Shown here: positions 34,513 to 39,682 of the stretch, in pieces
Position numbering within the stretch: position 1 is the stretch's first letter
Layout of the letters: each line of letters opens with the position of its first letter
NCBI GenBank assembly: GCA_964364285.1
Contig: CAYIKZ010000001.1
Span: 17,237-81,236, forward strand
Direction of reading: 5' to 3'
Length of the DNA stretch: 64,000 nucleotides
Source of the DNA: an uncultured Candidatus Saccharibacteria bacterium
GTDB lineage: Bacteria > Patescibacteriota > Doudnabacteria > UBA920 > VMFF01
Position numbers and translations under genes: made by a program
The notes under the pieces: model-generated
What the model saw: only the letters and a program-made list of their open reading frames with translations
Database searches by the model: none
What the model was told of the DNA's origin: nothing

Positions 34513-36147
34513 ATGGAAATACCTCATTACAAAAAAATAGTTCTTCTGGTGTTGGATGGTTTTGGTGTTGCTTCTAAATCAAGAGGAAATGCCATTTCTC
34601 AAGCAAACCCAGCGCACTTAAACAACCTACTCGCAAATTATCCAGCAATAACCTTACAGGCATCAGGACCTTTGGTTGGTTTGCCTTGGGGTGAAATGGG
34701 GAACTCAGAGGTTGGACATTTAAATATCGGAGCAGGAAGAATCGTTGCTCAAGACTTGCCTCGTATTACAGCAAGCATTCAAAGTGGAGAGTTTTTTAAA
34801 AATCCAGTGTTCTCAAAAGCATGCGAGCATGTTAAGAAAAACAACTCAAAATTGCATCTTCTTGGAATGGTCAGCCCAGGTGGAGTTCATAGTTATGACG
34901 AACACCTTTATGCGCTGCTTGGTTTAGCCGCAGAGCAGGGTATTCAAAACACATATATTCACATGATTACAGATGGAAGAGACACAGAACAAAAAGTTGC
35001 TCTAGCAAGTCTTGAAAAGCTACATAACAAAGTTGCTCAGATTGGTGTTGGAAAAATTGCGACAATTTGTGGAAGATTCTATGCAATGGACAGAGGCGGG
35101 CATTGGCAGCAAACAGAAATGGCATATCAAGCAATGGTAAATGGTGTGGGAGAGAAATCAATCAGTCCAATGGAAGCAGTAGCTACAAATTATGTTAAAG
35201 GTATATTTGATGAAATGATTAAACCAACCATCATCACAGAAGGTGATAGACCTGTTGCGAAAATTGAAAATAATGATGCTGTAATATTCTTTAACTTTAG
35301 ACAAGACCGTGCAATGCAGTTAACAGTTGCTTTTGTTGCTCCTGAAAAAATGGAGATACCACAAAAACATCAACCTTTAGAAAACCTTTGCTTTGTAACA
35401 ATGACCTCATATATGCCGGATCTGAAAGCAGATGTTGCTTATGGACCAATTGAGATTGACAATGACATTGCAAGCTTAATTTCTAAAGCAGGATTAAAAC
35501 AATTCCATGCTGCAGAGAGCGAAAAGTTTGCACACGTCACATCGTTTTTCAATGGTGGAAAAATGGATCCTCTTCCAGGAGAAGAGAGAAGTATAATTTC
35601 AAGCCCTGATAACACAAGCAACTATTCAGATAGACCAGAAATGTCTGTTGCAAAACTTACTGACACCTTAGTAGATCGTATAAATCACGGGGATGATAGT
35701 TTTTATGTCGTGAACTTTGCTAATGCGGATATGGTAGGACACACTGGAAACTTAAACTCAGCAATCGACGCTATTAAAGCAATTGATGAAGAGATTGGTA
35801 AAATTGCGGCCGCAATTTTACCACTGCAAGGAGCTTTGATAATCACAGCAGATCATGGCAATGCTGAATTGATGATAAATAACAACACAGGGGAGATAAA
35901 TAAGGACCACACAACATCCCCAGTCCCCTTTGTTTTGATTGCTAATGAATTTAAAAGATCAAAACCAGAGCAGATAGACTACGACACGCTCGCTGGTCTT
36001 ATGCCAGAAGGAGCGCTTTCAGATATTGCACCAACGATTCTTGAACTCTTTGGAATACCAAAACCAGAACAGATGACAGGAATTAGCTTGATTCCTGTTT
36101 TAGAAGAAGAGATTTTGAAAAAAGTTAGTAACATGTTAGGGAGTTAA
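34513..36147 (+). CDS. gpmI: 2,3-bisphosphoglycerate-independent phosphoglycerate mutase
   Basis: iPGM motifs (LVLDGFG, SEVGHLNIGAGR, ITADHGN). Confidence 0.92.
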   Translation: MEIPHYKKIVLLVLDGFGVASKSRGNAISQANPAHLNNLLANYPAITLQASGPLVGLPWGEMGNSEVGHLNIGAGRIVAQDLPRITASIQSGEFFKNPVFSKACEHVKKNNSKLHLLGMVSPGGVHSYDEHLYALLGLAAEQGIQNTYIHMITDGRDTEQKVALASLEKLHNKVAQIGVGKIATICGRFYAMDRGGHWQQTEMAYQAMVNGVGEKSISPMEAVATNYVKGIFDEMIKPTIITEGDRPVAKIENNDAVIFFNFRQDRAMQLTVAFVAPEKMEIPQKHQPLENLCFVTMTSYMPDLKADVAYGPIEIDNDIASLISKAGLKQFHAAESEKFAHVTSFFNGGKMDPLPGEERSIISSPDNTSNYSDRPEMSVAKLTDTLVDRINHGDDSFYVVNFANADMVGHTGNLNSAIDAIKAIDEEIGKIAAAILPLQGALIITADHGNAELMINNNTGEINKDHTTSPVPFVLIANEFKRSKPEQIDYDTLAGLMPEGALSDIAPTILELFGIPKPEQMTGISLIPVLEEEILKKVSNMLGS

Positions 36148-36255
36148 GCTGGGCTCATGGTTTTAGGTATAGATTTATGTCTATGCTTGGAACTCTTAGC
36201 TCACAGAGAGCAGAGTATTTCGGTTTAGACTCGGCAACCTTGAGGAGGATTTACG

Positions 36256-36846
36256 ATGACACTCGCGGTTTCGTCTGATGTTCCGTCTTCGCACGGGTCA
36301 GTAAAGGTTTGCCATCTTGGACTGGTTCGGCATGAGGCATTGGAGCCAAGGCTTGAAGGACTCACACCGCTTCATGCCGCCGTTCTGGCTGATGCCTGTG
36401 AGGAATACCGAGACGCTTTCGACTTGCTGACGACTCGGTTCCTCGCTGAGCGCATTATCCCAGCGGCGATCGAAGACTGCAAGTTCAAGATCGTTGCTGG
36501 GTCGTCCAATCTGCAGTATGCGGATTTTCCCATCAACGAGCAGTCACTCGACGACGTGGGTCTAGCTCCAAACGGTATTCTCCGTTCGGTTCATCAGATT
36601 CTCGAGGAGTATCCGCTTGAAGCCTTTGCCTCTCCATTGACAGCGTTGCGCTACGCTGCGAGGTACCCAGAAGTTTACATGGTCGCTCCAATCAACGTGC
36701 TGTTCGCGGCCATGGGCAAGCTATGGGGCATGACCTTTCTGAATTGGCAGGGTTTGCACAAGATGATTGTGCGCCAGTTCTTCCTCGAAGCCCGGTTCGC
36801 TACTGGAGAGCGTTTCCTTGTTCTCCGACGTGGTCGTTTGCGCTGA
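36256..36846 (+). CDS. hypothetical protein (196 aa) encoded in GC-rich island C
   Basis: ATG preceded by GAGGAGGA with a 6-nt spacer. About 58% GC. Followed by hairpin terminator CCGCGTTT...AAACGCGG. No recognisable family. Confidence 0.55.
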   Translation: MTLAVSSDVPSSHGSVKVCHLGLVRHEALEPRLEGLTPLHAAVLADACEEYRDAFDLLTTRFLAERIIPAAIEDCKFKIVAGSSNLQYADFPINEQSLDDVGLAPNGILRSVHQILEEYPLEAFASPLTALRYAARYPEVYMVAPINVLFAAMGKLWGMTFLNWQGLHKMIVRQFFLEARFATGERFLVLRRGRLR

Positions 36847-36940
36847 TGTCATCAAGATTCTGGGCCTTGTGCCCGAAGCTGGAGCCGCGTTTTGTTTGTC
36901 GAAACGCGGTTCTGCCTTTTCTAAAAACAATCTTTTGTTA

Positions 36941-36949
36941 TGCTACAAT
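36941..36949 (+). promoter_or_regulatory. extended -10 promoter element for recJ
   Basis: TGcTACAAT 6 nt upstream of the recJ ATG region. Confidence 0.4.
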
Positions 36950-36955
36950 GAAAAT

Positions 36956-38626
36956 ATGAATCGCACTTGGAAACTTAAGAAACAAACAGAAAAAGACCTT
37001 TTTGCCCAGCTTTTAGCAAATCGTGGTATTTTCGGGGAAAAGGAAATATCAGCTTTTTTAAGCCCTGAGTATGATCAGTTAAATGATCCTTTTCTTTTTT
37101 TAGAAATGCGTAAAGCAGTTGACCGTATTTGGAAAGCAATTGAGAAAAAAGAAAAGATCTTGGTGTATAGCGATTATGATGCTGATGCCATAACAGCAAA
37201 CGCGGTTTTGTTTAGAATGTTTGAAGCATTAGGAGTTAATGTAGGAACATATATCCCTGATCGTTTTTCAGAAGGTTATGGTTTAAACTTGGATGCTTTT
37301 GAAAAGATAAAGGAAGGGGGAGTTAGTTTAATAATTACTGTTGACTGCGGAACTAATTCAGTAGAAGAAGCAAAGTTTTGTAAAGCAAACAACATTGATT
37401 TAATAATTACAGATCACCATGAGATAACTGGGGAAGTGCCAGATGCTTTTGCTTTGATTAATTCAAAGAATCCAAAAGAAAAATATCCATACCATGAACT
37501 TGTTGGAGTTGGTGTTGCTTTTAAGCTTGCTTGTGCTGTGCTTTCAGAAAAAGAAAAACACAATCTTACTCCTGGTTGGGAAAAATGGTTGTTAGATTTA
37601 GTAGCTATTGGAACTGTTGCTGATTGTCATTCCTTGATAGGAGAAAACAGGCTTTTGGTTAAGTTTGGTTTAAAGGTTCTTCAAAAAACTAAATGGCTTG
37701 GGTTAAGGCTTTTGTTGCAGTTTGCTGGAATGACTTCTAAAAATTTAGATACATACACCTTAGGGTTTATAATAGCTCCCCGTATTAACGCGGCTGGAAG
37801 AATAGAGCACGCGTCTTCGGCTTTTGATCTTTTGATTGCAAATGAATATTCAGAAGCAGAAGAGGCTGCTAAAAATCTTGAAGCCTTAAATACAAAAAGA
37901 CAAAAGATCACTGAGGTTGTCATTTCTGAAGCTCGTGAGCAATTGCTTTTAGTTTCAGAACGAAAAATATTGCTTGCTTCGGGAGCAAACTGGCCAAAAG
38001 GCGTTGTTGGTTTAGTTGCTGGAAAACTTACTGAAGAATTTGGCAAACCGGTTTTAGTTATGGAGCGTGGACAAACAGAGAGCACAGGTTCTGCAAGAAG
38101 CGTTGCTAACTTTAATATTGTTGAAGCATTGAAATTTTCATCAGAGCACTTAGTTAAGTTTGGAGGACACGCAGCTGCTGCTGGGTTTACGGTTAAAACC
38201 GAACATATTGGCGTGTTTTACAAAAATCTTTTAGATTTTGCGGATCAGAATTTAAATACCGAAGATCTTTCAAAGGAAATTGAGATTGAGGCAGAATTAA
38301 AAGCAGAGGATGTTAATTTAAAGAACGCTGAAATGCTTGAAGCTTTTGAACCCTTTGGTGTTGATAACCCAAAGCCTAAGCTTTTGCTTTCAGACCTTGT
38401 TATTAAAGATCAGAAATTAGTCGGCAAAGAACAGAAACATCTGCAGTTAAGCTTAGTTTCCGAAACCGGAAAACTCTTGAAAGCAATTGCTTTTGGGTTT
38501 GGAAAATCAGCACCTGATTTGCTTCCTGGGCAAAAGATTGATATTGTTTTTGAGATGATAAAGGACGAGTGGAATGGTTTAAGTAATGTTAAATTAAGAA
38601 TAATTGATTACAAAAAAAGAATATGA
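36956..38626 (+). CDS. recJ: single-stranded-DNA-specific exonuclease RecJ
   Basis: DHH motifs (SDYDADAIT, ITDHHE) and DHHA1. Start set at MNRTWKL. The upstream part of ORF 36767.. lies in the GC island and terminator. Confidence 0.85.
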   Translation: MNRTWKLKKQTEKDLFAQLLANRGIFGEKEISAFLSPEYDQLNDPFLFLEMRKAVDRIWKAIEKKEKILVYSDYDADAITANAVLFRMFEALGVNVGTYIPDRFSEGYGLNLDAFEKIKEGGVSLIITVDCGTNSVEEAKFCKANNIDLIITDHHEITGEVPDAFALINSKNPKEKYPYHELVGVGVAFKLACAVLSEKEKHNLTPGWEKWLLDLVAIGTVADCHSLIGENRLLVKFGLKVLQKTKWLGLRLLLQFAGMTSKNLDTYTLGFIIAPRINAAGRIEHASSAFDLLIANEYSEAEEAAKNLEALNTKRQKITEVVISEAREQLLLVSERKILLASGANWPKGVVGLVAGKLTEEFGKPVLVMERGQTESTGSARSVANFNIVEALKFSSEHLVKFGGHAAAAGFTVKTEHIGVFYKNLLDFADQNLNTEDLSKEIEIEAELKAEDVNLKNAEMLEAFEPFGVDNPKPKLLLSDLVIKDQKLVGKEQKHLQLSLVSETGKLLKAIAFGFGKSAPDLLPGQKIDIVFEMIKDEWNGLSNVKLRIIDYKKRI

Positions 38627-39066: not shown

Positions 39067-39192
39067 TATTATTCCATTATGATTTCTAATCAATTACAAG
39101 CAGTAAATAACGGAATGCCAAAGTTTTGGTATAACTTTACATACTCCAGGGTTGTTTCGCTGCGGTAATTTTCTAATTCCTTTTTAAAAGAT

Positions 39193-39216
39193 TATCCCAG
39201 CGAGCCAACGCTGGGA
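39193..39216 (+). terminator. terminator/attenuator hairpin upstream of the island D gene
   Basis: ATCCCAGCG-AGCCAA-CGCTGGGAT plus T-run (TTTTTGTTTTT). Confidence 0.5.
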
Positions 39217-39277
39217 TTTTTGTTTTTGGTTCGGCGCACTTGGGACGCAATCTCAAGACCCAATTGGAGGATTGACA

Positions 39278-39682
39278 ATGCTTTCACGTAGCGAAGAAGG
39301 GCAGCTTGGTCGTTTCTGGGGCGTGGTGTTCACCCACATCGATGAGCTTGGGGTCATGTATCGTAACCGCAGGGGCAAGGATCGTCGGCACTACAGTGAT
39401 TTTGACGTATACGAGAGCGTAGAGTTTCCTTGCGGTTGCAAGCCGCGGTCTGGTCAGAGCAGGCGCTTCCGTCTTTACGAAGACGGTGCGCTGGTCCATC
39501 ACGGATGCTCGGTGGTTTTCGTAGGTCATGACAAGGAGGGGAAGCTCAAGCAGTCGATGCTTCAGAGGGCGATCTGGACCAAGAGGTCAATCGTTTTACA
39601 GCGCGTAACAAAGCCTAGCAAGCCATCACCGCGTGTTCCGCTCTACGGACCTTACGGAAGTCCGTACTTCGTGCGTCGTTGA
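39278..39682 (+). CDS. hypothetical protein (134 aa) encoded in GC-rich island D
   Basis: GGAGG 7 nt upstream of the ATG. About 57% GC. Possible Cys/His cluster (CGC...HHGC). Confidence 0.5.
   Translation: MLSRSEEGQLGRFWGVVFTHIDELGVMYRNRRGKDRRHYSDFDVYESVEFPCGCKPRSGQSRRFRLYEDGALVHHGCSVVFVGHDKEGKLKQSMLQRAIWTKRSIVLQRVTKPSKPSPRVPLYGPYGSPYFVRR

Follow-up and report, generated by a model that had tools for sequence, protein, structure and literature searches.

The approximately 780-bp block at positions 36148-36927, between gpmI and recJ, carries a real gene of a diversity-generating retroelement (DGR) variable-protein family. The block, here called island C, is an unusual member of a known DGR target family and not something new. 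The window referred to throughout is the whole stretch of DNA that was analysed, 64,000 nucleotides in length, and the other neighbours of the block in it are glycolysis genes, recJ and rnhA. Our preferred reading, to which we give a probability of about 0.65, is that island C is a stranded DGR variable-protein gene that is no longer diversified. As such it would be expressed, probably together with gpmI, as a constrained, fast-evolving protein of a binding type. The main rival, that a DGR outside the window still acts on it as a remote target, is considered improbable.

The features of the block and its surroundings are collected in Table 1. An earlier note on this DNA had placed a leader starting with GGGCT four nucleotides after the gpmI TAA, followed by a strong Shine-Dalgarno sequence, an ORF of 196 aa and a hairpin terminator ahead of the recJ extended -10. 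Direct reading of the sequence confirmed these positions: TGGGCT occupies 36150-36155, and GGGCT thus starts 4 nt past the gpmI stop. The terminator was also confirmed, as a hairpin with a T-rich tail. Its sequence is also conserved where family members occupy different sites, and homologous terminators (GAACCGCGTTTCG...) are found in L018, L019 and L010. The right edge of the insertion falls at approximately 36927, just 5' of the recJ extended -10, in the alignment with the L020 junction and L019.

Table 1. Coordinates of island C, its flanking genes and the second leader-bearing island in the window.
Feature	Position	Strand	Evidence or remarks
gpmI	34513-36147	+	iPGM_N, E 1.9e-76; TAA stop 36145-36147
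Degraded extended -10 remnant TAGTAACAT	36126-36134	+	aligns with TGGTATATT / TGGCATATT of L019, L013, L010
Structured leader (5' UTR)	36150-36255	+	alignments; covariance model 89 bits, E 1e-21
Leader helix 1, long hairpin	36159-36194	+	arms 36159-36173 and 36180-36194; also predicted from the single sequence
Palindrome CTCTTAGCTC-N5-GAGCAGAG	36195-36215	+	near-invariant in all 9 leaders
Shine-Dalgarno GAGGAGGA	36242-36249	+	6 nt 5' of the ATG at 36256; GGAGGA invariant in all leaders
ORF, 196 aa, DGR variable-protein family	36256-36846	+	dN/dS, AF2 model, profile matches
C-terminal alpha/beta domain, aa 76-190	36481-36828	+	family motif FASPLTALRYA...RFLV
VR-equivalent region	36712-36828	+	aligns with the L011 VR of known TR; static, drifted
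Small 3' UTR hairpin GGGC-cttgt-GCCC	36862-36874	+	position conserved with relatives
Intrinsic terminator	36880-36914	+	predicted; 15 pairs, T-rich tail
recJ extended -10 TGCTACAAT	36941-36949	+	alignment with the empty L020 junction and L019
recJ	36956-38626		DHH, DHHA1 and RecJ_OB domains
Second leader-bearing GC-rich island	60634-61450	+	ORF 60748-61389; leader 101 bits; different family

The nearest relative with the same gene is annotated as Candidatus Doudnabacteria. Compared with its L007 orthologue, the island ORF has a dN/dS of 0.195 and a dS of 0.87; the corresponding values for recJ are 0.034 and 0.70. The substitutions that separate the two ORFs number 25, 22 and 54 at codon positions 1, 2 and 3, and the sole indel is an in-frame change of 6 nt. 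The dN/dS, the third-position bias and the in-frame indel together indicate that the gene is translated and under purifying selection. The non-synonymous rate of the island ORF is approximately 7 times that of recJ, and identity to the L007 orthologue is 95.5% for RecJ and 71% for the island protein. Because its dS is similar to that of recJ, the island gene is about as old as its flanks, which fits co-inheritance.

The protein had initially been described as unrecognisable. Pfam, PHROGs and PADLOC gave no match for the 196-aa protein, and the ankyrin repeat that headed the Pfam list (E 0.16) was dismissed as a chance match. A single-sequence search returned the protein itself and one close relative (L007) only, falsely suggesting an orphan. 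However, translated ORFs located behind other leaders share the motif FASPLTALRYA...RFLVV, and a profile built from the protein together with three of its relatives matched 15 proteins in 5.8 billion, P0003-P0015 among them (E 2.7e-90 for P0003 and 9e-15 for P0013). An exhaustive HMMER search recovered 2,822 representatives at E <= 1e-3, 843 of these at E <= 1e-10, which share a C-terminal domain of approximately 125 aa. Homologues are found at 26-32% protein identity, and all relatives are Patescibacteria. The description as unrecognisable is therefore withdrawn, since the profile and exhaustive searches find a Patescibacteria family that includes verified DGR targets. The homology search proposed in the earlier note thus did reveal a recognisable family, but one with no functional link to gpmI or recJ, and the family is located at different genomic sites in different genomes. 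Given the E-values, the shared leader and the shared 3' UTR, a spurious alignment to P0003 and P0013 appears unlikely.

Some proteins of 300-500 aa contain the domain of approximately 125 aa two or three times in tandem, and in one case (P0157) it is fused to an AAA_5 ATPase. Scans of the relatives found no Pfam or PHROGs model for the domain, and the cluster annotation of the relatives is only "hypothetical protein". In an AlphaFold (AF2) model of the 196-aa protein (pLDDT 81.5, pTM 0.70), the N-terminus is disordered, residues 38-75 form a long helix and residues 78-190 a compact alpha/beta domain. The C-terminal domain is possibly C-type-lectin-like. Structures have been solved for C-type-lectin-fold DGR variable proteins, including Mtd, TvpA, and archaeal and Thermus proteins (PMC2408619, PMC5006420, PMC6328139). 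A sequence search of solved structures was empty, as were Foldseek searches of PDB and BFVD.

Four of the loci recovered are canonical diversity-generating retroelements (for general background on these elements, PMC5758913). L011 carries P0003, the best profile hit, behind the same leader; its VR and TR align over 115 nt at 86%, 15 of the 16 mismatches are at TR adenines, and a 363-aa RT lies downstream. In L020 the target is P0013, with the same leader and N-terminal 50 aa, a VR-TR pair of 133 nt at 85% whose mismatches are all at TR adenines, and an RVT_1 gene downstream; AAC codons are abundant in this TR. L008 has a 211-aa protein with the same leader, a VR-TR pair of 99 nt at 82% (17/18 mismatches at TR adenines) and a downstream RT of 332 aa. 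The fourth locus, L022, carries P0183, a member of the family of the second window island, with a VR-TR pair of 130 nt at 82% and bAvd and RVT_1 downstream.

A DGR clade restricted to the Patescibacteria, clade 2, was described by Roux et al. 2021 (PMC8144416); its targets are typically devoid of any recognisable conserved domain, transmembrane or other. The family fits this description. Like the clade 2 targets, the island C protein is small and lacks a transmembrane segment, a signal peptide and any Pfam domain, and its C-terminal domain is the one that bears the VR in its relatives. It differs from them in that no TR or RT was found within 64 kb, in its static VR, in its decayed cis elements and in the probable lack of a promoter of its own.

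Sensitive blastn of 36148-36920 against the 64-kb window returned the self match only and no TR-like repeat. No RT or RVT_1 was found among the ten large window ORFs of unclear function that were scanned, and no TR was found in the 7-12 kb around the gpmI-recJ copies of L010, L013/L016 and L019. The VR region has one differing residue at most among the four sequence variants of the 90% cluster. The window is from a Patescibacteria genome of groundwater, and identical contigs were found in Hainich aquifer assemblies, by a look-up that is biased against variants because it was based on exact protein identity. The island ORF is 99.0% identical in L009 (JBBTQQ01), a MAG that is approximately 95.6% identical overall. 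The protein differs from L007 and P0164 along its entire length, and the differences of the ORF from L007 include third-position changes. At the positions where the L011 TR has AAC, the codons of the window are CTG, TGG, AAG, ATT, CGC, TTC, GCT and GGA, and the residues at templated positions include Met, Gln, Lys and Glu. These codons are not NNC, and are thus unlike the pattern left by adenine mutagenesis. The VR end that encodes RFLV is conserved and the small 3' UTR hairpin has been kept; the hairpin that follows the stop in relatives is degraded.

These observations bear on whether island C could be a live remote target, the C-terminal codons of which are rewritten in trans by a DGR elsewhere in the genome. 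The family consists of DGR targets, and DGRs can serve non-adjacent or remote targets, as in the example of the Treponema DGR (Wu et al. 2018; PMC5758913). Island C resembles these in being a gene of the target type with no RT found near it in the 64-kb window; it also retains the 3' UTR hairpin and the conserved RFLV-encoding end, and the other leader-bearing island of the window differs strongly between close strains. However, remote targets are defined by A-to-N-only differences from the TR, and the codon pattern of island C, not NNC at templated positions and including Met, Gln, Lys and Glu, opposes recent templating. A static VR region is seen in the public assemblies and in strains at 95.6% identity, the post-stop hairpin is degraded, and the differences from L007 extend over the whole ORF, third positions included. 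We therefore consider active diversification in trans to be improbable, and prefer the stranded, undiversified copy. The direct view is of the 64-kb window, from which we infer a loss of diversification across the genome. Because identity to the verified targets is only 26-29%, shared ancestry is no proof that island C was ever diversified.

The leader, approximately 105 nt long, is a real, conserved, structured element. It was proposed previously that the island C leader has a homologous second copy in the window, and this was borne out: it aligns with 60634-60750, upstream of the second GC-rich ORF, and the covariance model gives 89 and 101 bits for the two leaders, with no more than 20 bits for the rest of the window. 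A generic repeat finder overlooked this homology because of indels. Pattern scans located it in several further Patescibacteria genomes and metagenomes, DGR target genes included. In all of these cases it is located 5' of a GC-rich ORF of 190-215 aa in AT-rich surroundings. One metagenome match, L017, was judged to be due to chance, as neither a GC island nor a leader is present there. The leader pattern was absent from the viral contigs scanned. Rfam gave no match at gathering thresholds in the whole window and only chance-level matches (E > 3) in 36100-36950, none inside the leader.

An alignment of nine distinct leader sequences supports the long hairpin, helix 1. It has 14 pairs, with 96.8% of cells paired and 6 compensatory pairs across the 9 leaders; this covariation was matched by 0 of 500 shuffles, and slid controls collapse. 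The palindrome that follows has a spacer of N5 or N6 across the leaders, 4 of its 7 pairs never vary and none covaries. This element is either a second leader helix or a DNA binding site, as a palindrome without covariation fits an RNA hairpin and a protein-binding DNA palindrome equally. Most leaders have a third, variable hairpin, which is not recognisable in island C. In L021 the leader has a long 5' hairpin of a different sequence. In the literature searched, no description was found of a structured leader common to different target families.

The promoter and terminator that precede the leader in relatives have decayed in the window. Between gpmI and the leader, L010, L013 and L019 carry a terminator hairpin followed by an extended -10 (TGGTATATT). 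The terminator hairpin is deleted in the window, and the -10 remnant TAGTAACAT is now within a 9-codon extension at the 3' end of gpmI. The original stop has been lost, so that the window gpmI encodes 544 aa, compared to 535 aa in relatives, and the extension reads into the former intergenic terminator/promoter region. A promoter scan found no sigma-70-like promoter in 35900-37100. The proposal that the island has no promoter of its own is thus probably correct, the scan being empty, the hairpin deleted and the -10 decayed. Island C is probably co-transcribed with gpmI by read-through, which is reasonable to infer from the deleted hairpin and the degraded -10. On the 3' side, the post-stop hairpin of relatives (L018-L021; GGACGTTTCGTC in L019) has decayed in the window to GGTCGTTTGCGC, which is translated as the tail GRLR of the island ORF.

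The interpretation of the block as an insertion is upheld by L020, in which gpmI and recJ are 29 nt apart with no island between them and the DGR is located after rnhA. The GpmI and RecJ proteins of L020 are 72% and 63% identical to those of the window. The suggestion that relatives would lack the island at this junction was borne out in part: the site is empty in L020 but occupied in L007, L009, L010, L013 and L019. The empty L020 junction indicates that the gpmI-recJ site is occupied only in the clade of the window and these five. The family member of L018 has a methyltransferase gene on one side and rplU on the other. Another, in L021 (2598-3374), has no TR and is located directly 3' of a 258-aa gene with a weak match to Y1_Tnp (IS200-like transposase).

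The composition of the block differs sharply from its flanks. GC content is 0.53-0.57 across 36200-36900 and 0.35-0.42 in the flanks, GC3 is 0.59 in the island ORF versus 0.29 in gpmI and 0.26 in recJ, and A content is 18% versus 33-35% in these two genes. The same contrast is present inside the four canonical DGRs (L008, L011, L020, L022), in which the target ORFs have a GC content of 0.53-0.61. The TR is at 0.53-0.55 in the three of these loci that were measured, and the neighbouring RT genes, together with the Avd gene of L022, are at a host-like 0.34-0.38. Because of this shared contrast, high GC is a trait of the DGR target genes and not a mark of foreign origin. In these elements it spans the whole target ORF and not the VR alone. 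Keeping adenines out of the non-variable TR/VR positions could be a cause of the GC content of the VR, but not that of the whole ORF. Three more GC-rich ORFs are present in the window, at 2415-2759 (-), 6066-6356 (-) and 39272-39682 (+), with GC 0.52-0.59 and GC3 0.61-0.68. They have no Pfam, PHROG or PADLOC match, and hhalign found no relation to the island C family. The ORF at 39272-39682 comes after rnhA, the site of the DGR in L020, and a weak leader-model match (39156-39280, 18 bits, E 0.02) lies upstream of it.

The earlier note had called the GC-rich block an island, and a recent gene from a GC-rich donor (a genomic island or moron) unrelated to DGRs would account for a GC of 0.55 between flanks of 0.36-0.39, with a GC3 of 0.59 against 0.26-0.29. 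It would also account for the absence of the block from the L020 gpmI-recJ junction and for the window and L009 being closer to each other in the ORF than in its flanks. The canonical DGRs, with their host-like RT and Avd genes, contradict the compositional argument. In addition, the relatives are all Patescibacteria and the leader was not found in viral contigs. The dS against L007, similar to that of recJ, makes the gene as old as its flanks and not ameliorated, and there are no mobility genes or flanking repeats at the island. A foreign origin is thus very unlikely.

In AT-rich genomes, a GC-rich island often turns out to be a structured RNA. That the block, GC-rich in an AT-rich genome and headed by a structured leader, is a non-coding RNA with a fortuitous ORF is nevertheless scarcely credible given the dN/dS of 0.195, third-position excess and in-frame 6-nt indel against L007, the confident protein model, the protein homologues at 26-32% identity and the lack of an Rfam match. 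Other candidates were dropped: an integron cassette (no intI, attC or cassette array), an IS200/IS605-type hairpin-ended element (no TnpA/TnpB here and only the weak Y1_Tnp neighbour in L021), and a retron or type III toxin-antitoxin RNA (no RT and no tandem repeats).

With island C read as a stranded DGR target, the following history can be proposed. The family module is made up of a promoter, the structured leader, an ORF of approximately 190 aa, small hairpins in the 3' UTR and a terminator. In the product of the ORF the N-terminus is disordered, a long helix comes next, and the C-terminal domain is of a ligand-binding type. Complete elements also have a TR and an RT downstream, which use adenine-specific mutagenic retrohoming to rewrite the VR, the last 35-45 codons. 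The window lineage has the target module alone at its gpmI-recJ junction. In island C, the terminator upstream, the promoter and the hairpin after the stop would then have disappeared, and ordinary substitution would have made the VR codons drift. Today it would be an ordinary gene, fast-evolving yet constrained, presumably expressed by read-through from gpmI with a strong Shine-Dalgarno sequence and its own terminator. The product is predicted to be a soluble binding protein of fixed specificity.

Strain comparisons suggest that alleles of these genes are exchanged. Identity to L019 is 89-90% for the flanking proteins and only 26% for the island protein. Identity to L009 (JBBTQQ01) is 100% in the leader and 99.0% in the ORF, versus 95.8% in gpmI and 93.2% in recJ; the greater conservation of the island than of its flanks hints at recent recombination or a sweep. 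The second island belongs to a family of 52 Patescibacteria proteins, of which P0183 (L022) is a canonical DGR target. Against JBBTQQ01 (L012), its ORF has a nucleotide identity of approximately 50-75%, while the leader, terminator and flanks are at 88-94%, a pattern that appears to imply whole-ORF allele replacement between conserved ends. P0013/P0014 (L020) and P0004/P0008 (L010/L019) have a nearly identical leader and N-terminal ~50 aa and differ in the middle and C-terminal parts, which would indicate modular recombination within DGR target genes. The identity patterns of L019, JBBTQQ01 and the sister island suggest that alleles may be exchanged by recombination in or near the conserved ends.

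A broader interpretation is that these conserved ends, the leader with its palindrome, the 3' hairpins and the terminator, make Patescibacteria DGR targets portable and exchangeable cassettes, with a GC-richness that is selected or mechanistically imposed. We regard this as speculative and rather unlikely. Similar to phage morons and integron cassettes, island C is a small module in which one gene comes with 5' and 3' elements of its own, modules of this kind occupy varied sites, and the sister island resembles them in its whole-ORF replacement between conserved ends. Island C differs from both in that it has no prophage context, integrase, attC-like site by intI or cassette array. Were the cassette interpretation true, the ends could be a new cis-regulatory RNA or protein-binding element. 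They could also be recombination anchors for whole-ORF swapping, seeding solo copies, and the GC-richness of targets beside AT-rich RT genes would be selected or mechanistically imposed. The strict contrast in composition between target/TR and RT genes is another feature for which no description was found in the literature searched.

A DGR-family gene stranded without its retroelement can thus present itself as a GC-rich "orphan island" within an ultra-small genome that is AT-rich. Such stranded targets are missed by DGR pipelines that start from the RT and are easily mistaken for foreign DNA. In the stranded reading preferred here, island C offers a concrete case for the fate of a hypervariable binding protein after diversification stops: purifying selection has been kept, with non-synonymous evolution at approximately 7 times the recJ rate.
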